Positions 1 through 7,942 of a DNA stretch of 7,942 nucleotides are shown piece by piece (within the stretch, counting starts at the first letter, position 1; each line of letters starts with the position of its first letter). Source of the stretch: a virus (lineage: Duplodnaviria > Heunggongvirae > Uroviricota > Caudoviricetes). Below the pieces are notes generated by a model, which worked only from the letters and a program-made list of their open reading frames with translations, was not told where the DNA came from and searched no databases. Where the stretch lies: the IMG/VR virus record IMGVR_UViG_2529292910_000006; one strand, 5' to 3'. The translations under genes were made by a program, and so were the position numbers.

Positions 1-102
1 CTTCATGCGGATCCGCTGGCGTTCGAAGAAAAGCATGGTTCTCAGGTTGATTTAATTTTTCGTTTTCTTGATCACGCCTTTGCAACTGGCGTGCTTGGGT
101 AA
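1..102 (+). CDS. 3' end of an upstream prophage gene (partial, product not recognised; nin-region position)
   Basis: Frame 1 is open from the window edge to TAA at 100-102 (…FRFLDHAFATGVLG*). It lies 12 bp upstream of rusA, and the gap holds the rusA ribosome-binding site. Product is not recognised from this fragment. Confidence 0.35.
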   Translation, partial: LHADPLAFEEKHGSQVDLIFRFLDHAFATGVLG

Positions 103-114
103 AAGAGGTGACTG

Positions 115-489
115 ATGCTCATAGATTTGGTTTTACCTTACCCGCCGACGGTGAACACTTACTGGCGACGCCGTGGCAGCACATATTTTATCTCGGAGGA
201 GGGAAAGCGTTATCGCCGGGCTGTGGCGCTTATTGTTCGCCAGCAGCGGCTGAAATTAAGCCTGTCCGGAAGGCTGGCGATAAAGGTGATTGCAGAGCCA
301 CCGGATAAGCGTCGTCGCGACCTGGACAATATCCTGAAAGCACCGCTGGATGCGCTGACGCACGCGGGGTTGTTAATGGACGATGAGCAGTTTGATGAAA
401 TCAATATTGTACGTGGAAAGCCAGTATCTGGTGGACGTCTGGGGGTGAAGATTTACCCCATAATGCTTGAAGGGCAGGTCAAAAAATGA
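115..489 (+). CDS. rusA: Holliday junction resolvase RusA (crossover junction endodeoxyribonuclease)
   Basis: 124-aa ORF with AAGAGG ribosome-binding site at 103-108 and ATG at 115. The N-terminal LPYPPTVNTYWRRRG and the acidic catalytic block PDKRRRDLDNILKAPLDALTHAGLLMDDEQF match my recollection of E. coli RusA ([23 protein letters not shown]). Its TGA overlaps the next gene's ATG (ATGA at 486-489). Confidence 0.9.
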   Translation: MLIDLVLPYPPTVNTYWRRRGSTYFISEEGKRYRRAVALIVRQQRLKLSLSGRLAIKVIAEPPDKRRRDLDNILKAPLDALTHAGLLMDDEQFDEINIVRGKPVSGGRLGVKIYPIMLEGQVKK

Positions 490-1306
490 AACTGGAAGAT
501 TTACCGAAATACTACTCCCCAAAATCCCCTGGCCTGACCGATGCATCGGCCTCAACGTCAAAAGATGCGCTGAGTATCACTGATGTGATGGCCGCGCAGG
601 GCATGACACAGAATCGGGCTGAGATGGGGTTTTCTGCGTTCCTTGGGAAAATGGGCATTAGTATGAATGACAGAGAGCGGGCAACAGAATTGCTGACAGA
701 ATATGCACTCAGTCGGTGTGATCGCGTGGCGGCGTTAAGAAAACTCCCGGCAGAAATAAAACCGGCAGTAATGCGTATTATGGCTTCGTATGCGTTTGAA
801 GATTATGCCCGTAGCGCGGCGAGCAAAAAACAGTGCCCCTGCTGTCACGGAAAAAATTTATTGAAAGCGAGGTTTTTACAAACAAGATCCAGTATCCGGA
901 TGGTAAGCCGCCAGTGTGGGCAAAGTGCACAAAAGGCGTGTATCCGTCTTACTGGGAGGAATGGAAAAAAGTCAGGGAGGTGGTAAAAGTTGCCTGTCCG
1001 GAGTGTGGAGGGAAGGGAGAGGTATCCACTGCCTGTAAAGATTGTCGTGGGCGCGGTGTTGCCATTCATCGTGAAGAGTCGGAAAAACAGGGTGTGCCGG
1101 TTTTCAGAAACTGTCAGCGTTGTGGTGGGCGTGGCTATGAAAGATTACCTTCAACGGAGGCATTTAATGCCATATGTAATGTAACCGATGCCATATCTCT
1201 TGATACATGGAAAAAAACAGTTAAACGTTTTTACGATACGCTGGTGGTGCAGTTTGATATTGAAGAAGCATGGGCAGAACAACAACTGAAAAAGGTGACC
1301 AGATAG
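486..1306 (+). pseudogene. Lambdoid late antiterminator Q-like protein with CxxCxGxG zinc-finger repeats, interrupted by a -1 frameshift in an A6 tract (851-856)
   Basis: Sits directly after rusA and before a late-promoter/terminator pair. The N-terminal part (frame 0, MKLEDLPKYYSPKSP…CPCCHGK) turns into R/S/Q-rich translation after about 855, while frame 2 picks up from about 857 (KFIESEVF…CPECGGKG…CKDCRGRG…CQRCGGRG) and runs to TAG at 1304-1306. One extra A in the run at 851-856 would give a single ORF of about 272 aa. Alternative reading: two overlapping genes, 486-986 and 833-1306. Confidence 0.6.
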
Positions 1307-1311
1307 CTTTG

Positions 1312-1339
1312 TTGATTTTTCCCGAATCTGTGGTAAATT
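1312..1339 (+). promoter_or_regulatory. Candidate late promoter (pR'-like): -35 TTGATT, 16-bp spacer, extended -10 TGgTAAATT
   Basis: TTGATT at 1312-1317, TG at 1331-1332 and TAAATT at 1334-1339, immediately downstream of the Q stop and about 50 bp upstream of an intrinsic terminator. This is the canonical position of pR' in lambdoid phages. Confidence 0.45.
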
Positions 1340-1386
1340 TGCCCTAACGATGGGCGTTTTATGCCTGACGTTAGAAGATTTTTACA

Positions 1387-1409
1387 CCCGTCGCCAGGCG
1401 GGTTTTTTT
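1387..1409 (+). terminator. Rho-independent terminator (tR'-like) downstream of the late promoter
   Basis: Stem CCCGTC (1387-1392), loop GCCA, stem GGCGGG (1397-1402) with one G-U pair, followed by T7 (1403-1409). Confidence 0.6.
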
Positions 1410-1531
1410 ATGACTGAAATCACGCCAGTACAGTAAACGCGCTGGTGGCGGTGAATACCGGTCTTTCAGCTTGCTGGCTTTTTTGACAAGAGTTATTGGT
1501 GTGTCACGTTAACCGGAAAAGGGAAAAAGAC

Positions 1532-1729
1532 ATGCTGAAACAGCAGGATATGACCGAAACCGCCAGAGTGGTGTTTAATGAATTAAGTGCCACCGCACCG
1601 GCGACAGTCGGGGAGATTGCACAGAATACTTACCTCTCACGCGAACGCTGCCAGTTAATACTGACCCAGCTTGTTATGGCGGGTCTGGCAGACTATCAGT
1701 GCGGTTGTTACAGACGCCTTCAGTCCTGA
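1532..1729 (+). CDS. Small hypothetical protein (65 aa), accessory gene of unknown function
   Basis: ATG at 1532 preceded by AAGGG at 1519-1523; the ORF track also allows a GTG start at 1496. The protein (MLKQQDMTETARVVFNELSATAPATVGEIAQNTYLSRERCQLILTQLVMAGLADYQCGCYRRLQS) has a short helix-turn-helix-like central segment. Its stop codon is embedded in an intrinsic terminator. Confidence 0.5.
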   Translation: MLKQQDMTETARVVFNELSATAPATVGEIAQNTYLSRERCQLILTQLVMAGLADYQCGCYRRLQS

Positions 1730-1741
1730 AGGCTTTTTATT
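1716..1741 (+). terminator. Rho-independent terminator at the end of the small ORF
   Basis: Perfect 7-bp stem GCCTTCA (1716-1722) / TGAAGGC (1727-1733) with loop GTCC, followed by TTTTTATTT. Confidence 0.65.
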
Positions 1742-1762
1742 TGTGGTGAATGGGCGGCTGGT

Positions 1763-1770
1763 GGGGGGGG
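1763..1770. repeat. G8 homopolymer tract in the intergenic region upstream of the AraC-family gene
   Basis: GGGGGGGG at 1763-1770, about 30 bp upstream of the candidate -35 element. Confidence 0.9.
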
Positions 1771-1798
1771 CGACACCTGTCAGTCCTTTGCTTATGTG

Positions 1799-1829
1799 TT
1801 GATGATAATTTACCTTTTGGGGCTATAAT
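1799..1829 (+). promoter_or_regulatory. Candidate sigma70 promoter for the AraC-family gene
   Basis: TTGATG at 1799-1804 and a perfect TATAAT at 1824-1829, in an AT-rich stretch about 35 bp upstream of ATG 1865. The 19-bp spacer is longer than optimal. Confidence 0.3.
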
Positions 1830-1864
1830 TGAGCTAACCAATTGCTAATGAAAGTAAAATTATA

Positions 1865-2578
1865 ATGGCTGTTGTCTGTTCAGTTATCATGGTTTGCTCC
1901 CCAATTAATATTTTTCTTGAAAAGGATACGTTGTCACTTAAGCCAGGCTCAGTCGTTCTGGCCACCAAATGCATCAGGGAGCTTTTCCTTATGCATTATG
2001 ACAAAGTTAAAATTGTCGATATAAGCGAATCCGTCGTAAGTCAATATCTGGAAAGTCAGCATAAGCTGACGAGGACTCGTCTGACTGACATTCCGCTTTA
2101 CCTGTTGCTGGAACCCAACAATCCTGCGTTGGCTGCGGCTTTAATTACCAGCCAGGGATTTTCCGGAGAGGCCACGGATATGTTTCTTATGATGGCCTGC
2201 CTGTCTCTGTTTGAAACAGATGAACGGATGTCATTGTTTTTAAGTGGATGTTTATCCAGCATAAGTGTCAAAGTCAGGGCGATAATTCAGACAGATATAT
2301 CAGCAAGCTGGACGCTTGGTGCGATTGCTCTACAGTTGCATATGAGTGAGAGTTTGTTAAAGACAAAACTGAAAAATGAAGGGGGCATGTTCAGTCGCTT
2401 GTTGCTGGAAGAGCGGATGCGTGTTGCTGTAAATATGTTATGTTCCCGGTATGGATATGGACAGGCTGTAGCAGAAAAATGCGGTTATTCAAGCAGGTCC
2501 TACTTTATTTCTGTATTTCACCGCTATTATGGCTTCCCGCCAGACAGATATGTATCCAGGCAAGGGCTTGATTATTGA
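1865..2578 (+). CDS. AraC/XylS-family transcriptional regulator of the AppY/GadX-like group (prophage-borne, PatE/Psr-like)
   Basis: 237-aa ORF. The C-terminal AraC-type HTH (WTLGAIALQLHMSESLLKTKLKNEGGMFSRLLLEERMRVAVNMLCSRYGYGQAVAEKCGYSSRSYFISVFHRYYGFPPDRYVS) closely parallels the GadX C-terminus as I recall it (WTLARIASELLMSPSLLKKKLREEETSYSQLL…CGYHSVSYFIYVFRNYYGMTPTEY). The N-terminus MAVVCSVIMVCS…IRELF…KVKIVDISE resembles AppY (MDYVCSVVFICQ…IRREL…KLRIVDIDK). No recognisable Shine-Dalgarno sequence. Confidence 0.8.
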   Translation: MAVVCSVIMVCSPINIFLEKDTLSLKPGSVVLATKCIRELFLMHYDKVKIVDISESVVSQYLESQHKLTRTRLTDIPLYLLLEPNNPALAAALITSQGFSGEATDMFLMMACLSLFETDERMSLFLSGCLSSISVKVRAIIQTDISASWTLGAIALQLHMSESLLKTKLKNEGGMFSRLLLEERMRVAVNMLCSRYGYGQAVAEKCGYSSRSYFISVFHRYYGFPPDRYVSRQGLDY

Positions 2579-2606
2579 TTTTCATCTGATTATTATTTTT
2601 TTACCC

Positions 2607-2682
2607 GGCCCTTTAGCTCAGTGGTGAGAGCGAGCGACTCATAATCGCCAGGTCGCTGGTTCAAATCCAGCAAGGGCCACCA
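2607..2682 (+). tRNA. ileZ: tRNA with CAU anticodon, most like tRNA-Ile2 (lysidine) of the ileX/ileZ type; tRNA-Met not excluded
   Basis: 76 nt with 7-bp acceptor stem GGCCCTT/AAGGGCC, D arm GCTC…GAGC, anticodon loop CTCATAA, T loop TTCAAAT and encoded CCA. Near-identical in layout to E. coli ileX as recalled. Confidence 0.8.
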
Positions 2683-2689
2683 TCACATA

Positions 2690-2766
2690 CCGCCATTAGC
2701 TCATCAGGACAGAGCGCCAGCCTTCGAAGCTGGTTGCGCGGGGTTCGGGTCCCCGATGGCGGTCCA
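2690..2766 (+). tRNA. argN: tRNA-Arg (anticodon UCG)
   Basis: 77 nt with perfect 7-bp acceptor stem CCGCCAT/ATGGCGG, D stem GCTC/GAGC, perfect anticodon stem CCAGC/GCTGG with loop CTTCGAA, T stem CGGGG/CCCCG and encoded CCA. Seven-nt spacer from the previous tRNA. Confidence 0.75.
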
Positions 2767-2779
2767 TTATCGGTATTCA

Positions 2780-2856
2780 GCGTTGTTAGCTCAGCCGGAC
2801 AGAGCAATTGCCTTCTAAGCAATCGGTCACTGGTCCGAATCCAGTACAACGCGCCA
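2780..2856 (+). tRNA. argO: tRNA-Arg (anticodon UCU)
   Basis: 77 nt with acceptor stem GCGTTGT/ACAACGC, D stem GCTC/GAGC, anticodon stem ATTGC/GCAAT with loop CTTCTAA, T loop TCCGAAT and encoded CCA. Confidence 0.85.
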
Positions 2857-3143
2857 CACCACACTTATCTGCCCTGACTCTCTTTTGCGGGCTTTTTATT
2901 ACAGGAAAGACACCGGACAGTGAAATGTTAAATGCCTCACAATTCAGGCAGTTGACTGTTGCCTGACATGCTGAGCGTTTGTTAAAAAAATCCTGCATGA
3001 TGAATCCCCCTGAGCGGCGGGGCATAATGACAGATGTTTGGTTGCGTATTGTATAGGCAAGTTGCGGATTCTGTCTGGTCATTGCAGAATTCACCGGGAG
3101 GCACCCGGCATCATGCTGTATACAGAGATTAGGCATATATCCA

Positions 3144-3168
3144 GGCTCCTCATCGCAGGAGCCTTTTT
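3144..3168 (+). terminator. Rho-independent terminator (+ strand)
   Basis: Stem GGCTCCT (3144-3150) / AGGAGCC (3157-3163) with loop CATCGC, followed by TTTTT. Confidence 0.55.
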
Positions 3169-3174
3169 ACATGC

Positions 3175-3199
3175 AAAAAAAGCCCGAGTGGGTTCGGGC
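3175..3199 (-). terminator. Rho-independent terminator (- strand), forming a back-to-back pair with the + strand terminator
   Basis: On the minus strand: GCCCGA, loop ACCCAC, TCGGGC, followed by T7 (seen as A7 at 3175-3181 then GCCCGAGTGGGTTCGGGC on the + strand). Confidence 0.45.
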
Positions 3200-3259
3200 A
3201 ACAGCATGAGATACTTGCATTGTCATTTTTATCGTGTGGATTTTAACCAGGGTTTATAA

Positions 3260-3290
3260 GGCTGCGCAACTGCGCGGCCTTTTTCGTTTT
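3260..3290 (+). terminator. Rho-independent terminator (+ strand) about 90 bp upstream of nanS-p
   Basis: Stem GGCTGCGC (3260-3267) / GCGCGGCC (3272-3279) with one G-U pair and loop AACT, followed by TTTTTCGTTTT. Confidence 0.5.
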
Positions 3291-3377
3291 GCGGGCTGCG
3301 GTTCTCCTCTTTTGATTCTCCGTATAGCCGGACTGTGGCCCGCACTGTTGAGGAAAATCCCGGAAAGGGGAGGAATA

Positions 3378-5312
3378 ATGGCATTTAAACACTATGACGT
3401 GGTCAGGGCGGCGTCGCCGTCAGACCTTGCTGAACGACTGACTCAAAAACTGAGGGAGGGGTGGCAGCCATTTGGCAGTCCTGTCGCCATCACGCCTTAT
3501 ACCCTGATGCAGGCCATTGCGGCGGAAGGTGATGTCACCACACCTGTGGTGGTGAGGCCGTCGGATGGAGAAGGCACAGTTATCAGCACCACCAGCGAAC
3601 CGGAATATTACTATGTTGTCGTCCTTGCCGGTCAGTCCAATGGTATGGCTTTTGGCGAAGGGCTGCCGTTACCTGAAACCTATGACCGCCCTGAGCCGCG
3701 CATTATGCAGCTGGCGCGCCGTAGTACGGTGACGCCGGGGGGAGCTGCATGTGCGTACAATGATGTTATTCCAGCTGACCACTGTCTGCATGACGTCATT
3801 GATATGAGTGGATTCAACCACCCACGGGCCGACCTGACAAAGGGGCAGTATGGTTGTGTGGGGCAGGGGCTGCATATTGCCAAAAAGCTTCTGCCGTTCA
3901 TTCCGGTAAATGCAGGTATTCTCCTGGTTCCGTGCTGTCGTGGTGGCTCAGCATTCACCTCCGGAGATGATGGCGCATTTACTGAGTCTACCGGTGCTTC
4001 CGCCAGCTCAGCCCGCTGGGGAGTGGGTAAACCGTTGTATCAGGATTTTCTCTTCCGTACAAAAGCGGCGCTGTCGAAGAACCCGAAAAACAGGCTTCTG
4101 GCCGTGGTATGGATGCAGGGGGAAAATGATCTTGCGGACGGCAGTCAGCAGCACAGCGGCCTGTTTACCGCTATGGTGCAGCAGTTCAGGGCTGATATGG
4201 CAGCATATTCTGCACAGTGCGTTGGCGGAAGTGCTGGCTCGGTGCCGTGGATTTGCGGTGACACCACGTATTACTGGAAGAATCTTAACGCCGCTAAATA
4301 TGAGGCGGTATATGGCGGTTACAAGGGCAGGGAAGCACAGAATATTTTCTTTGTTCCTTTTATGACGGACAGCAGTGGTGCAAACACACCCACCAACAAT
4401 CCGTCAGAAGACCCGGATATTCCGGCATCAGGATATTACGGTGCAGCCTCCCGGACGTCGGAAAACTGGACGTCAGCAGACCGTGCGAGCCATTTCAGCT
4501 CATGGGCACGCAGGGGGATTATTTCTGACCGTCTGGCCTCAGCGATTCTTCTCCATGCAGGACGATCGGCTGAACTGGTGGGGGGACAGGTTGTGACGCC
4601 GCCGGATGAGAAGCCGTCACCGGACATACCATCAACACCGTCAACGGACGGGAAATCAGTGACAACGCTGCTTTCTTACCGTGCAGCAGAGTCAGATGGT
4701 TTACTGACTCCGCAGGGATGGGGTGCTGAAGGAGGGAGTGCAGCGGTAGTTGATGATGCAGGTGCTGCGGGAGGTAAGGCGCTGAGGCTGACCAAACAGG
4801 CAGGAAGGTCTTCGTGGTTTATGCAGCATGATGCCGGTAATGGCGCAGACCTTCTGGAGAAAGGCGGGCTTATCAGCTGTCGTTTTAAAGTTGATGGTGT
4901 GCTGTCTGCTAACCGTTATGCACTGGCGCTGTACTGGCCGGTTTCTTCATTGCCTCAGGGTGTCACACTGGAAGGTAATGCCGGTAACAATCTGCTGGCG
5001 TCGTTTTACGTACAGAGCGATGCCACAGACCTCAACGTGATGTACCACAAGGGTAACGCTGACCAGAACACGAAGCTGGGGTCATTCGGCGCATTTGACA
5101 ACGAATGGCATACGCTGGGCTTCCGTTTTGCCGGTAATAACAGCATTCAGGTGACGCCGGTGATTGATGGTCAGGATGGTGCACCGTTCATGCTGTCGCA
5201 GTCTCCGGTAGGTTCTTTTGCGGCAGACAAATTACGTGTAACGGATATCACAAAAGCGGCGACGTATACGGTGCTGATTGAAAGTATAACAGTGGAAGTG
5301 AATAACGCGTAA
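3378..5312 (+). CDS. nanS-p: Prophage sialate O-acetylesterase NanS-p (N-terminal DUF1737-like region plus SGNH/SASA esterase domain), 644 aa
   Basis: Strong ribosome-binding site GGAGG at 3368-3372 with ATG at 3378; the ORF track's longer 3234 start is an in-frame upstream extension. GQSNG esterase motif in VVVLAGQSNGMAFGEG (about 3630-3644). Size and position (after the tRNA triplet, before the holin) match the esterase gene found downstream of stx in Stx phages. Confidence 0.85.
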   Translation: MAFKHYDVVRAASPSDLAERLTQKLREGWQPFGSPVAITPYTLMQAIAAEGDVTTPVVVRPSDGEGTVISTTSEPEYYYVVVLAGQSNGMAFGEGLPLPETYDRPEPRIMQLARRSTVTPGGAACAYNDVIPADHCLHDVIDMSGFNHPRADLTKGQYGCVGQGLHIAKKLLPFIPVNAGILLVPCCRGGSAFTSGDDGAFTESTGASASSARWGVGKPLYQDFLFRTKAALSKNPKNRLLAVVWMQGENDLADGSQQHSGLFTAMVQQFRADMAAYSAQCVGGSAGSVPWICGDTTYYWKNLNAAKYEAVYGGYKGREAQNIFFVPFMTDSSGANTPTNNPSEDPDIPASGYYGAASRTSENWTSADRASHFSSWARRGIISDRLASAILLHAGRSAELVGGQVVTPPDEKPSPDIPSTPSTDGKSVTTLLSYRAAESDGLLTPQGWGAEGGSAAVVDDAGAAGGKALRLTKQAGRSSWFMQHDAGNGADLLEKGGLISCRFKVDGVLSANRYALALYWPVSSLPQGVTLEGNAGNNLLASFYVQSDATDLNVMYHKGNADQNTKLGSFGAFDNEWHTLGFRFAGNNSIQVTPVIDGQDGAPFMLSQSPVGSFAADKLRVTDITKAATYTVLIESITVEVNNA

Positions 5313-5326
5313 GCAGGATAAAAAAA

Positions 5327-5368
5327 TGCCGCCGGGGCAGGGAAAACAAGGAGCCAGAACCGGCGGCA
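5327..5368. repeat. Perfect 9-bp inverted repeat (TGCCGCCGG / CCGGCGGCA) with 24-nt spacer, just downstream of nanS-p
   Basis: 5327-5335 and 5360-5368 are exact reverse complements. No T-run follows, so this is not a canonical intrinsic terminator. Confidence 0.5.
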
Positions 5369-5462
5369 GAGGTCGCTACATCCTTAGCAAAAATATGCTG
5401 AGCAAAAAATGCAGGAGTTTTTTACTGGCAGGCATTAACCATGTCAATAATGGAGATGAATA

Positions 5463-5645
5463 ATGACATTTTTACAGCTGATTATGTTGTATTTCTGTAC
5501 AGCAGTTTGTGTGCTGTATCTTCTTTCTGGTGGGTACAGAGTCGTGAGAGATTTCTGGCGCAGACAGATTGACAAAAGGGCCGCTGAGAAAATCAGCGCC
5601 AGTCAGTCAGCCGGAACAAAACCCGAAGAGTCTCTCATTCCGTAG
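5463..5645 (+). CDS. Small hypothetical membrane protein (60 aa)
   Basis: GGAG at 5452-5455, 7 nt before ATG 5463. N-terminal hydrophobic helix (FLQLIMLYFCTAVCVLYLLSGG) followed by a basic/polar tail. Confidence 0.5.
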   Translation: MTFLQLIMLYFCTAVCVLYLLSGGYRVVRDFWRRQIDKRAAEKISASQSAGTKPEESLIP

Positions 5646-5682
5646 CAACTTTCTTAACAACACCTTTCAACGAGAAAATACC

Positions 5683-5952
5683 ATGTCAGAAATAAAATCG
5701 CTGGTCACTGCTGAAGCAGTGAAGGAAGTCCTGCGCTCTGAAGAAGTCAGAAGCGCACTGAAACAGCAACTTCGTCAGAATCTTGAGGCGCGTCTTGATG
5801 CTGAAGTGGATGCCATTCTGGATGAACTGCTGGGGGTACCGGCTGCTCCCGGGCCTGAAGACGGTGCGGGTGACAGTGCTGTTTCAGATGGTGTCGTGTC
5901 TCAGCCTGATGGTGGCAGTGAGCCTCAGCCTGACGGCGAAATGATGATGTAA
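5683..5952 (+). CDS. Hypothetical acidic protein (89 aa)
   Basis: ATG at 5683 inside the longer track ORF 5569-5952. Helical N-terminal half (…LRSEEVRSALKQQLRQNLEARLDAEVDAILDELLG) and acidic Pro/Gly/Asp-rich C-terminus ending MMM. Weak ribosome-binding site. Confidence 0.45.
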   Translation: MSEIKSLVTAEAVKEVLRSEEVRSALKQQLRQNLEARLDAEVDAILDELLGVPAAPGPEDGAGDSAVSDGVVSQPDGGSEPQPDGEMMM

Positions 5953-6027
5953 CCATGCGCAGGGGCTGTCGGTGTGAGCTGATGCCCCTCTTGTTGTTGT
6001 GAGCTTCCGGATTGCGGGAGACGGGGT

Positions 6028-6243
6028 ATGTACCAGATGGAAAAAATCACAACAGGTGTGTCATACACCACGTCAGCGGTGGGAACGGGCTACTGGTTCC
6101 TGCAGTTGCTGGACAGGGTTTCCCCGTCTCAGTGGGCGGCAATAGGCGTGCTGGGGAGTCTGCTGTTTGGTCTGTTGACGTACCTGACGAACCTGTATTT
6201 CAAAATCAGAGAGGACCGTCGTAAGGCGGCACGGGGAGAGTAG
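6028..6243 (+). CDS. S: Class II holin (phage 21 S-type pinholin), 71 aa, with dual-start motif
   Basis: GGGAG at 6016-6020 then ATG 6028 and a second in-frame ATG at 6037 (MYQMEK…). Two transmembrane segments and the charged C-terminus [13 protein letters not shown]. The sequence closely matches my recollection of S21 (…[25 protein letters not shown]…[22 protein letters not shown]). Confidence 0.9.
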
Positions 6244-6246
6244 GTG

Positions 6247-6327
6247 ATGAACCATGAAGAAATGAATCAGCGCTTCAGTCGTCTGGAAAATGAAATTGCT
6301 GAACTGAATAAAAACTGTCGGCGCTGA
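6247..6327 (+). CDS. Very small ORF (26 aa) coupled to the downstream gene by a TGATG overlap; coding status uncertain
   Basis: ATG at 6247, 3 nt after the holin stop (MNHEEMNQRFSRLENEIAELNKNCRR*). Its TGA at 6325-6327 shares an A with ATG 6327 of the next ORF. Confidence 0.3.
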   Translation: MNHEEMNQRFSRLENEIAELNKNCRR

Positions 6328-6803
6328 TGCCTTCTGAAGATGAAAAAAAACGCCGCGATGAGCAGTTTGCTGCGTTTGACGATTATTGTCGGAAAGTGAT
6401 GAGCAGAAATCTCGCAGAGTGTTTCAGTATTCATAATGATAATTTCAGTGAGCTGGAATGGGAGTGTAACCGGCCATCCTTTGTTGTATCCGGTGATGCT
6501 GGGAAAATAACCATCTCAGAAAATGGGAAAGTAACACCTCCATCGCACCAGCACAGTGAGGAGCTCATTGAATTTGCCATTGATTACCTGAAGAACAATA
6601 AAAAGCAGGGGCTGATGAAGCGCGTTGGCCGTTGCATGGGATATCTTCAGGTAGCCGCTGAGATTGAAGCGCTGGCCAGTGGTGCTGATAAGGATGCAAT
6701 TGTGCGGGAGGCTCTTCTTCGTGATTTTAATACTCCACCCTTTAAAAAAGTGCCGGCTTACTGGCTTCATCCGGGGCTGACTTATCTTAAAGTGCGTATT
6801 TAG
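6327..6803 (+). CDS. Hypothetical protein (158 aa) located between holin and endolysin
   Basis: Uninterrupted ORF with non-repetitive composition (MPSEDEKKRRDEQFAAFDDYCRKVMSRNL…). An A8 tract at 6343-6350 sits in codons 6-8. No family recognised. Confidence 0.55.
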   Translation: MPSEDEKKRRDEQFAAFDDYCRKVMSRNLAECFSIHNDNFSELEWECNRPSFVVSGDAGKITISENGKVTPPSHQHSEELIEFAIDYLKNNKKQGLMKRVGRCMGYLQVAAEIEALASGADKDAIVREALLRDFNTPPFKKVPAYWLHPGLTYLKVRI

Positions 6804-6839
6804 TGGGCCAGGGACAGCGGCTGAATATTTAATATATCC

Positions 6840-6980
6840 ATGAACACCAAAATCAAATACGGCCTGTCGGCTGCCGTTCTGGCGCTGATTGCCGCTGGTG
6901 CGCCTGCGCCTGACATTCTCGACCAGTTTCTGGATGAAAAGGAAGGTAACCACACCACGGCATACCGTGATGGCGCGGGT
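6840..6980 (+). pseudogene. R: SAR endolysin (lysozyme R) 5' fragment, truncated after about 47 codons
   Basis: MNTKIKYGLSAAVLALIAAGAPAPDILDQFLDEKEGNHTTAYRDGAG matches the N-terminal signal-anchor-release region of Stx-phage/phage-21-type endolysins as recalled (…YGLSAAVLALIAAGA…DQFLDEKEGNHTTAYRDGAG). After about 6980 the frame becomes unrelated and stops at 7014-7016. Confidence 0.75.
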
Positions 6981-6985
6981 ACACC

Positions 6986-7942
6986 ATGCAGGTTGAGCCG
7001 GGGCGTTATCGTGTGACCCTGTGCGTGGAAGGCCGTCAGCCGGCATGCGCTGGCGAGATTGACGTCATGGCAGACGACGAGCCGGGCACACTGAATGCGT
7101 TTTTGCTGCGTGAGCAGGACAGCACTTATTACCCTGAGTCGCTGAAAAAACTGGAAGACGCGGCGGATGCGGCTGTCAGCAGGGCAGAGGAAGCGGCGAG
7201 GAAAGCGGAAACGGCGGTTGGGCCACAGGGACCGAAAGGCGACACCGGAGCAACGGGGCCGCAGGGACAGAAGGGGGACAAGGGGGATACAGGCCCACAG
7301 GGGCCAAAGGGGGATAAAGGAGACAAGGGCGATAAGGGGGATAAGGGAAAAGAGATTATTGCAGTACGAAATGCAGCCTGCAACGAATACGGCGGGATAA
7401 ACTGTGAGGTGCAGTTTGAAGATGCGGTCAATGAAAAAGGAGAGCAGGTATGGCTGCCGTATACCGCAACGGAAACGGATAATACAGAACACGGAAAAGC
7501 CTTGTGGTCGGGGCTGACAGCAGGAACATACGGAAGTGTGAGTGCCTTTGTTGCCACGGAAGCAATACTGGAAGCGGCAAAGGCGGCGAAAAGGGAAGAG
7601 ATTAATATCTGGCGTGATGTGCAGGAGAATATGGAATACGTGATGGAATTCAACGGAAGGAACTGGGATTACGGCAAGAAGACGTTGTCCAGGATAAGCA
7701 CGACACGACTGATGGCAGAGAACAACCGTCTTCCGGAAGGGTTTGCCTGGACGGACGGGGATAATAATGTGGTGCCGGTAACGGCGGCGGAGATAATTGC
7801 GCTGGCAGATGCGACAGAGCAGGCGATGTTTGCGAAAGGTGTGGAGATTAATACACGTCAGCTTCAGATGAAAGCAGAGGTTGAGGCGCTGACAGAGCTG
7901 AAGGCGATCCGCAGTTATGTTGTCGGATGGCCTGCAAGCTAG
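6986..7942 (+). CDS. stf: Side tail fibre protein, 5'-truncated remnant (318 aa from the first ATG) with collagen-like Gly-X-Y repeats
   Basis: EPGRYRVTLCVEGRQPACAGEIDVMADDEPGTLNAFL aligns with lambda Stf residues around 55-95 as recalled (EYGQYSVILQVDGFPPSHAGTITVYEDSQPGTLNDFL), so the homology starts mid-protein. Fourteen Gly-X-Y triplets follow. The frame is open back to 6971 and runs to TAG at 7940-7942, with no ribosome-binding site of its own. Confidence 0.7.
   Translation: MQVEPGRYRVTLCVEGRQPACAGEIDVMADDEPGTLNAFLLREQDSTYYPESLKKLEDAADAAVSRAEEAARKAETAVGPQGPKGDTGATGPQGQKGDKGDTGPQGPKGDKGDKGDKGDKGKEIIAVRNAACNEYGGINCEVQFEDAVNEKGEQVWLPYTATETDNTEHGKALWSGLTAGTYGSVSAFVATEAILEAAKAAKREEINIWRDVQENMEYVMEFNGRNWDYGKKTLSRISTTRLMAENNRLPEGFAWTDGDNNVVPVTAAEIIALADATEQAMFAKGVEINTRQLQMKAEVEALTELKAIRSYVVGWPAS
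7220..7354 (+). repeat. Collagen-like triplet repeat (Gly-X-Y, 14-15 units, including four GDK in tandem) inside the tail fibre gene
   Basis: GPQGPKGDTGATGPQGQKGDKGDTGPQGPKGDKGDKGDKGDKGKE, with a 9-bp periodicity of GGnGAnAAG-type units visible in the DNA. Confidence 0.9.

Follow-up and report, generated by a model that had tools for sequence, protein, structure and literature searches.

The interval between the last tRNA gene and the NanS-p-type esterase gene of the window (the whole 7,942-nucleotide stretch analysed here, IMG/VR record IMGVR_UViG_2529292910_000006) is best read as the standard intergenic module of an Sp9-type toxin-free lambdoid prophage, carrying two convergent sRNA genes, and we put the probability of this reading at about 0.9. 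The + strand gene would encode an Hfq-binding sRNA of ~210-240 nt with its own terminator, belonging to the STnc100/EcOnc27-28/PasD family, and the - strand gene would encode the EcOnc03 member of the AgvB/AsxR group of anti-sRNAs. This layout is the published combination of a moron site and a convergent sRNA pair described by Tree et al. 2014; the architecture, the sRNA genes and their position relative to stx were thus already known, and what we add for the present locus are sequence identities, Rfam membership, junction positions and prevalence. A first-pass annotation of the same DNA had described the interval as empty non-coding DNA in a late region resembling that of Shiga toxin (Stx) phages. 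Instead, it holds a full-length STnc100-family gene and, facing it, an EcOnc03-type anti-sRNA gene (Table 1).

Late region of a decayed prophage

The window (7.9 kb) corresponds to the late region of a lambdoid prophage of E. coli. The gene order proposed in the first-pass annotation holds for the three tRNA genes and the esterase, but it omitted the winged-helix (wHTH) ORF and the AraC regulator, and the Q and endolysin genes that it named are both defective. Q is divided between two ORFs because a run of A residues is one nucleotide short (A6 at 851-856 versus A7 in the intact homologue). Of the endolysin (lysozyme) gene only the first ~47 codons are left, joined at 6980/6981 to internal sequence of a tail-fibre gene; all the DNA between mid-lysozyme and mid-tail-fibre, two points that are ~24 kb apart in strain ST866, is missing. 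With Q frameshifted, the endolysin cut and the morphogenesis genes gone, the window does not have what a functional (inducible) lambdoid prophage has, and the element is a decayed prophage. Because of the Q frameshift and the deletion from mid-endolysin to mid-tail-fibre, only functions expressed in the lysogen (the tRNAs, the AraC-like regulator and the sRNAs) can still matter. The best genome match is E. coli OkiPb01678 (97-98% over window 1-6981), and no complete genome in the searched collection covers the whole window. An extended -10 promoter is plausible ahead of the hairpins that follow Q (TTGATT at 1312-1317, TG-n-TAAATT at 1331-1339).

Table 1. Features of the window, with positions counted from its first nucleotide
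Feature	Position	Strand	Remarks
RusA	115-489		
Q antiterminator, PF03589-type, in two ORFs	486-986 and 833-1306		
Terminator-like hairpins 3' of Q	1340-1356 and 1386-1403		
Winged-helix (wHTH) ORF, 77 aa	1496-1729		
YdeO/GadX-like AraC regulator	1865-2578		
tRNA with anticodon CAU, ileZ-type tRNA-Ile2	2607-2682	+	Labelled Met by ARAGORN; homologue annotated as tRNA-Ile/ileZ in relatives
tRNA-Arg (UCG)	2690-2766	+	
tRNA-Arg (UCU), argO-type	2780-2856	+	
Trailer 3' of the last tRNA, decayed hairpin and T-run	2857-2900	+	-6.0 kcal/mol, z -0.5
Filler ACAGGAAAGACACCGGACAGTG, 22 nt	2901-2922		Cargo position between post-tRNA trailer and conserved block
Conserved leader block AAATGTTAAATGCC TCACAATTCAG	2923-2965	+	Common with DNA starting 39-45 bp after stx1B/stx2B
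STnc100-family sRNA (Rfam RF02076)	2966-3174	+	176.7 bits versus gathering score of 47
Anti-sRNA of the AgvB/AsxR family, EcOnc03 allele	3175-3234	-	Terminator hairpin 3199-3182
Putative sigma-70 promoter of EcOnc03	3240-3269	-	-35 TTGCGC 3269-3264, -10 TAAAAT 3245-3240, start ~3234; read from sequence
Strong hairpin with T-run, 5' of the esterase gene	3258-3281	+	-19.3 kcal/mol, z -3.1
NanS-p-type esterase (DUF1737 + SASA + DUF6645)	3378-5312	+	Identical start annotated in relatives
DUF1378 and DUF826 ORFs	Between esterase and holin		
P21-type holin	6028-6243		
ORF, 158 aa	Between holin and lysozyme remnant		

Bounds, terminators and absence of a toxin gene

The esterase is the conserved phage ORF that bounds the module, and since its ATG is at 3378, the gap is exactly 2857-3377 (521 bp), in agreement with the coordinates and the length of ~520 bp given in the first-pass annotation. 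Its count of two + strand terminators and one - strand terminator is likewise borne out. They are the terminator of the STnc100-family sRNA (3143-3164), that of EcOnc03, and one further + strand hairpin (3258-3281), which overlaps the -35 region of the putative EcOnc03 promoter. A scan of 1200-3600 returned 9 terminator-like sites, compared with 2.4 +/- 1.6 in shuffled sequences.

The statement that the gap holds no toxin ORF also stands. When the Stx1A/B and Stx2A/B proteins of the fetched Stx phages were used as tblastn queries at E values up to 10, none had a match in the interval, and the best match in the whole window had an E value of ~0.1. No similarity to stx1 or stx2 was found in the window by blastn or tblastn, and the four longest ORFs that overlap the interval (51-116 aa) have no Pfam match.

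Position of the toxin cargo site

Stx-converting phages carry stxA and stxB between the Q/PR'/tRNA region and the esterase, and the window has neither gene there. The flanks are nevertheless of the Stx type, with the ileZ-argN-argO tRNAs upstream, and the sRNA pair, nanS-p and the S holin downstream. In a Stx2a phage, the counterpart of window 2604-2897 is the three tRNAs plus the 41 bp preceding stx2A (91% identity), and window 2937-6250 matches the DNA from about 45-46 bp after stx2B onward; the 1.34 kb between both matches contain stx2A (2215-3174) and stx2B (3186-3455, coordinates of the phage stretch). Stx2a phages (Sakai Sp5 / 933W type) have the same order as the window, namely STnc100-family sRNA, convergent anti-sRNA, esterase and holin, but in place of the 22-39 bp of the window they carry ~1.34 kb (the stx2 promoter and stx2AB). 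As anti-sRNA allele they have AsxR rather than EcOnc03, and their downstream module is 73-80% identical to that of the window. A Stx2b prophage has the same two breakpoints as the Stx2a phage, and in the STnc100 region it shares 96.8% identity with window 2937-3186. In a Stx1 phage, homology begins 39 bp after stx1B, which corresponds to window 2923, and continues to the esterase start (3377) at ~82% identity. Stx1 phages (such as Shigella phage 75/02 Stx, phage H30 and BP-4795) differ from the window in having stx1AB; in the fetched stretch of phage 75/02, no tRNAs were detected upstream of or around stx1, and the upstream flank is unrelated to that of the window. Rfam searches placed a convergent pair of STnc100 and anti-sRNA between stxB and the esterase in both the Stx1 and the Stx2a phages. 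Published distances are in the same range, with STnc100 starting 75 nt after stx2B (PMC12370729) and AsxR ~282 bp 3' of stx2AB (PMC4104026).

These comparisons confine the place where a toxin cassette would be inserted. The whole ~520 bp had been taken for the stx slot, but Stx1, Stx2a and Stx2b phages have a counterpart of the ~455 bp from 2923 to 3377, located between their stxB and esterase genes. In Stx phages this DNA lies downstream of stx, and ~455 of the 521 bp are therefore not where stx would sit. Both stx flanks were found when the locus was compared with Stx1 and Stx2 phages (2604-2897 on one side; 2923 or 2937 onward on the other), and the toxin site itself is therefore only a joint of 22-39 bp. 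By these alignments, the unoccupied cargo site is 2901-2922, or at most 2898-2936, compared with ~1.34 kb in Stx2 phages. The view of the locus as an stx-negative relative of Stx-phage late regions is thereby upheld, with stx-flanking DNA on both sides of a sharp joint.

The trailer upstream of the joint (2857-2900) has its homologue in Stx2a and Stx2b phages immediately 5' of the stx2 cassette. Its hairpin has decayed in the window, whereas in those phages it is a strong terminator (-14.8 kcal/mol, z -4.3, in the Stx2a phage). From the tRNA end to the conserved block there are 80 nt in the window, 46 nt in an stx-free prophage of an O80:H26 strain (L007), 1376 nt in the Stx2a phage and 1385 nt in the Stx2b prophage. 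L007 differs from the window in having no filler, the T-run of its hairpin running directly into the conserved block. As a lesser possibility, the T-run after the post-tRNA hairpin may be a recurrent recombination breakpoint at which stx and other cargo are exchanged.

A probable toxin-free lineage related to Sakai Sp9

The closest described counterpart of the interval comes from O157:H7 Sakai, in whose prophage Sp9 a spacer separates argO3 from ECs_1781. This spacer can be aligned with the interval over its full length (98.7% identity, 5 mismatches, 2 gaps), and Sp9 has the 22-nt filler, an identical EcOnc03 sequence, an STnc100-family sRNA and the same downstream esterase start. The two elements differ upstream, where Sp9 has a DUF1133-type antiterminator, a DNA methylase and two tRNAs only, whereas the window has the frameshifted PF03589-type Q, the wHTH ORF, the YdeO/GadX-like regulator and three tRNAs; the esterase bodies are only ~80% identical. 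In Sp9, both EcOnc03 and an opposing Hfq peak, EcOnc28, have been mapped (Tree et al. 2014, PMC4104026). According to the same study, moron insertions are tolerated in the DNA 3' of the Q-dependent PR' promoter, and in Sakai Sp3, 4, 5, 9, 10, 11, 15 and 17 the moron site is separated from a conserved phage ORF by two convergent genes for Hfq-binding sRNAs. The first-pass annotation had named, as an outcome against its reading, a match to ordinary stx-free lambdoid phages along the whole interval without similarity to stx-flanking sequence. Such a match exists, with stx-free Sp9, but the interval resembles stx-flanking DNA as well.

Of 5426 complete E. coli genomes, 544 contain the stretch from the tRNA-Arg(UCU) to the anti-sRNA (2780-3234) in contiguous form, at a coverage of at least 80%. 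Strain 90-3040 matches it with 100% identity, and the best match reaches at least 99% identity, at any coverage, in 434 records.

We considered whether the element is a former Stx phage from which stxAB was recently and precisely deleted, the interval being the scar. Such a deletion would leave both stx flanks around a short joint, as is the case here; the 96.8% identity of the STnc100 region to the Stx2b prophage would agree with it, and a 2026 preprint offers repeated stx loss from prophages as one reading of similar synteny. However, no stx remnant is left at the DNA or the protein level. The filler ACAGGAAAGACACCGGACAGTG is absent from the Stx loci examined, and in an exact scan of IMG/VR it occurred in 54 viral contigs, all with an equal upstream hairpin and an equal downstream block. 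In addition, the identical junction is present in the 544 complete genomes, Sakai Sp9 included. The missing remnant, the constant context of the filler and the wide occurrence of the junction make a recent loss of stx unlikely. It is further disfavoured by the identity of the flanks to those of Stx1/Stx2a phages (only 91% upstream and 73-80% downstream), and by the second stx-free allele, which has a different, shorter joint. A long-standing stx-free lineage in the mosaic pool would fit the sequence comparisons better than a recent excision, and an ancient loss of stx followed by spread is possible, given modular recombination. Among the 54 contigs with the filler, 45 have an EcOnc03-type and 7 an AgvB-type 5' region of the anti-sRNA. 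The filler was also considered as the tail of another cargo cassette, which was rejected, as none of these contigs has it in an alternative context.

The + strand sRNA

The STnc100 match covers model positions 1-206 of 206 and is thus full-length (E 3.9e-41), and the sRNA ends in its intrinsic terminator followed by a U-run. Homologues are found at the matching relative position in the Stx1 phage (L001), the Stx2a phage (L002), L004 and L005. The fold of 2937-3174 is not unusually stable when the sequence is folded singly (z -1.6), and family membership rests on the covariance model rather than on this fold.

The + strand sRNA is the equivalent of EcOnc27/sRNA103 of Stx2 phages and of the EcOnc28 Hfq peak of Sp9. 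EcOnc27/sRNA103 has been given as the counterpart of the STnc100-type RNA (PMC12711010), and the STnc100-type + strand RNA has been reported to be related to PasD (bioRxiv 10.64898/2026.05.13.724894). By its score the copy found here is a full-length STnc100, and it may also be classed with the PasD sRNAs known from prophages of EPEC and EHEC (Zhu, Shabalina and Storz, bioRxiv 2026). When the EcOnc28 Hfq-CRAC peak is transferred from Sp9, where the region is 98.7% identical, it falls within the STnc100 match, at 3073-3118 of the window; for this mapping, a shift of ~137 nt between genome record versions (Table S2 versus NC_002695.2) was corrected by means of the published EcOnc03 sequence. The 5' end of the sRNA may come from its own promoter or from processing of a longer transcript. 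The conserved leader block may contain its promoter or its 5' end, and a promoter-like site can be read at 2963-2991.

The - strand anti-sRNA

The published EcOnc03 sequence is identical to the window at 3178-3228 on the - strand (51 of 51 bases). The short - strand members of this family have a common ~42-nt 3' scaffold and differ in a 5' region of 14-18 nt (Tree et al. 2014, PMC4104026), and the window copy has the scaffold with its terminator, a variable 5' region of this size and an overall length of 51-60 nt. Its position is also that of the family, convergent with a second sRNA and between the moron site and the conserved phage ORF: the STnc100-family sRNA (+) ends at 3174, the anti-sRNA (-) ends at 3175, and the esterase gene comes next.

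With AgvB and AsxR, the window copy shares the ~42-nt 3' scaffold and terminator, the CGAU 5' start, the position and the orientation. It scores 56.6 bits with the AgvB model (RF02702), barely above the gathering score of 56, and 46.8 bits with the AsxR model (RF02703), below the threshold of 63; the anti-sRNA of the Stx2a phage reaches 88.1 bits with the latter. However, its 5' variable region (AAAAAUGACAAUGCAA / CGAUAAAAAUGACAAUGCAA) is without the CACAACA of AgvB, the GcvB R1 target consensus, and is also unlike the 5' region of AsxR. Because this mimic is absent, we do not call the gene AgvB (anti-GcvB) despite the Rfam label. Nor does it qualify as AsxR proper (anti-FnrS, of Stx2 phages), given the score below the threshold and the absence of stx2 from the window. 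The Stx1 phage has STnc100 together with an anti-sRNA allele identical to EcOnc03. An allele that stands beside stx1 in Stx1 phages is thus retained here in a prophage without Q function, lysis or morphogenesis.

In Sakai, EcOnc03 was detected as RNAs of 56, 54 and 51 nt, ranked among the most abundant Hfq-bound unannotated sRNAs and became less stable when hfq was deleted (Tree et al. 2014, PMC4104026). Primary 5' ends have been reported for it (PMC4104026), and the putative promoter at 3240-3269 would fit them. AgvB blocks GcvB and AsxR blocks FnrS, both in trans (Tree et al. 2014, PMC4104026), and these two are the only family members that have been tested experimentally. By analogy, EcOnc03 most likely sponges some host sRNA. 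No target of EcOnc03 has been reported, and a full-text literature search on EcOnc03 returned the 2014 paper alone.

Candidate targets were screened by RNAduplex energy, with three anti-sRNAs against 21 core sRNAs of K-12 taken from NC_000913. The top hit of EcOnc03 was SgrS nt 5-38 (E -24.7 kcal/mol, z -2.8), in a duplex in which the EcOnc03 5' end GAUAAAAAUGAC faces GUCAGUUUUAUC of SgrS (nt ~26-37). The known pair AsxR-FnrS reached only z -0.6 in the same screen, which for this reason cannot be trusted, and the AgvB-GcvB control ranked second by z, so that duplex energy is not discriminating. SgrS may thus be taken as a weak lead only. Pairing of the EcOnc03 5' region with the convergent STnc100 homologue was rejected, as 159 of 300 shuffles were at least as good by RNAduplex, and so was pairing of AsxR with its neighbour EcOnc27 (113 of 300 shuffles).

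Sequence spacer or sRNA genes

The interval might instead act in cis only, as a spacer whose stacked terminators shield the late genes, with matches to RNA families but no function in trans. Three clear terminator hairpins are present, and any roles of STnc100 and EcOnc03 are still putative. We nevertheless consider this very unlikely. An identical EcOnc03 is abundant on Hfq in Sakai, with primary 5' ends and with reduced stability in delta-hfq cells; AgvB and AsxR, of the same family, are trans-acting; and a gene on the - strand cannot insulate late transcription on the + strand. The spacer and sRNA interpretations are partly compatible, since terminators can serve both roles.

An unrecognised small protein, such as one encoded by the 116-aa ORF at 3136-2786 (-) or the 73-aa ORF at 3038-3259 (+), can practically be dismissed: such ORFs exist, a hypothetical protein is annotated across the homologous DNA in some phage records and one relative has a partial pseudogene call there, but the Pfam search of the four longest overlapping ORFs was negative, the ORFs overlap the tRNA-Arg gene and the structured sRNAs, and RefSeq leaves the interval unannotated in close relatives including Sakai.

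How the convergent pair may work

With the interval read as a module of two convergent sRNA genes, we infer the promoters, the action of EcOnc03 as a sponge and the logic of insulation and read-through as follows. On the + strand, an Hfq-binding STnc100-type sRNA would be made and would stop at its own terminator. On the - strand, an Hfq-dependent EcOnc03 of 51-60 nt would be transcribed from its own promoter to its own terminator, and it would antagonise a host sRNA, as AgvB does with GcvB and AsxR with FnrS. The stx cassette of Stx phages lies between the post-tRNA hairpin and the sRNA module, where the window has only the 22-nt filler. In the lysogen, transcription would be kept from running on into the esterase and lysis genes by the + strand terminators, and upon induction Q-modified polymerase would read through them.

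It is conceivable, if rather doubtful, that selection has maintained the block of tRNAs, AraC regulator and sRNA pair as cargo that regulates the host, one particular core sRNA being sponged by EcOnc03.

Implications

The discovery value of the locus is small, as the architecture was described in 2014 for O157:H7 Sakai and the interval is ~99% identical to a mapped example. It does bear on how such regions are annotated. In lambdoid prophages, the DNA from the late-region tRNAs to nanS-p should not be assumed to be empty, and a gene that Rfam labels "AgvB" with a score at threshold may in fact be the EcOnc03 allele, whose 5' region differs. The junction map, finally, places the stx cargo site within ~20-40 bp, which helps in scoring the gain and loss of stx across prophages.

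Anti-sRNA allele downstream of stx1 and its possible pairing

Downstream of stx1 in Shigella phage 75/02 Stx (L001, an Stx1 phage), the anti-sRNA at L001 3734-3793 has a 5' region and scaffold identical to those of EcOnc03, the minus-strand anti-sRNA of the stx-free locus typified by prophage Sp9 of E. coli O157:H7 Sakai. This identity indicates that the EcOnc03 allele adjoins stx1, while AsxR goes with stx2a. In the Sp9 region, Table S2 of Tree et al. 2014 places the sRNAs about 137 nt away from their positions on the current Sakai RefSeq record (NC_002695.1 versus NC_002695.2), and its coordinates, if applied unshifted to the current record, retrieve the wrong sequence.

The extreme 5' end of EcOnc03, GAUAAAAAUGAC (window 3223-3234, minus strand), is complementary to nucleotides 26-37 of K-12 sgrS, GUCAGUUUUAUC, with 7 and 4 bp flanking one mismatch. 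SgrS ranked first (z -2.8) for EcOnc03 in a 21-sRNA duplex screen whose own positive controls did poorly. A strong plus-strand terminator hairpin 5' of the esterase (3258-3281) overlaps the inferred EcOnc03 -35 element (3264-3269, minus strand), and through this overlap late read-through and anti-sRNA expression could disturb each other.

Hairpin following the tRNA genes

Directly 3' of tRNA-Arg(UCU), the Stx2a phage L002 carries a hairpin and T-run (L002 2125-2165) that form a strong terminator (-14.8 kcal/mol, z -4.3). By comparison, substitutions in the 5' arm have led to decay of the corresponding hairpin in the window (2857-2900; -6.0 kcal/mol, z -0.5) and in the other Sp9-type copies.

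Disrupted and variable genes of the late region

Features of the late region flanking the tRNA and anti-sRNA loci
Feature	Window position	Remarks
Q antiterminator, two ORFs	486-1306	two PF03589 domains and a DnaJ-like zinc finger
TrmB-like wHTH ORF, 77 aa	within 1496-2578	
YdeO/GadX-like AraC regulator, 237 aa	within 1496-2578	own promoter-like site at 1802-1829
158-aa ORF	6327-6803	between holin and lysozyme
Lysozyme-to-tail-fibre fusion	6840-7942	junction at 6980/6981

Q is divided by a 1-nt homopolymer deletion, the window having A6 (851-856) where the intact 273-aa homologue of E. coli strain OkiPb01678 has A7; the split gene is either a true pseudogene or a homopolymer sequencing error. 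At the other end of the window, about 47 codons are left of a SAR-type lysozyme gene, after which the sequence continues in-line inside a tail-fibre gene with collagen repeats; the tail-fibre part matches PF08400 from profile position 51 onward, followed by Collagen and DUF4376. Measured against strain ST866, this join points to a deletion of about 24 kb comprising Rz and the terminase, head and tail genes, and the junction is absent from every complete E. coli genome of the collection.

The 158-aa ORF has no match in Pfam or NCBIfam. Its place in relatives is taken by an annotated hypothetical protein, which is frameshifted in OkiPb01678, or instead by a YdfR-family gene. Directly 3' of the esterase stop, a weak Rfam match to Esr41 (5318-5403, minus strand) scores 23.2 bits, below the gathering score of 102 (E 0.57), and is probably due to chance; in related prophages, the sRNAs PasA and PasC have been reported between esterase and holin.

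A second cargo site, 5' of the tRNA genes

The wHTH ORF and the AraC regulator lie 3' of the Q terminators and 5' of the tRNAs, where Sakai Sp9 and others instead have a DNA methylase; some relatives have an annotated TerB protein, presumably inside the homologous stretch. This interval is a second, occupied cargo site, and it resembles the prophage-encoded Psr regulators (Tree et al. 2011).
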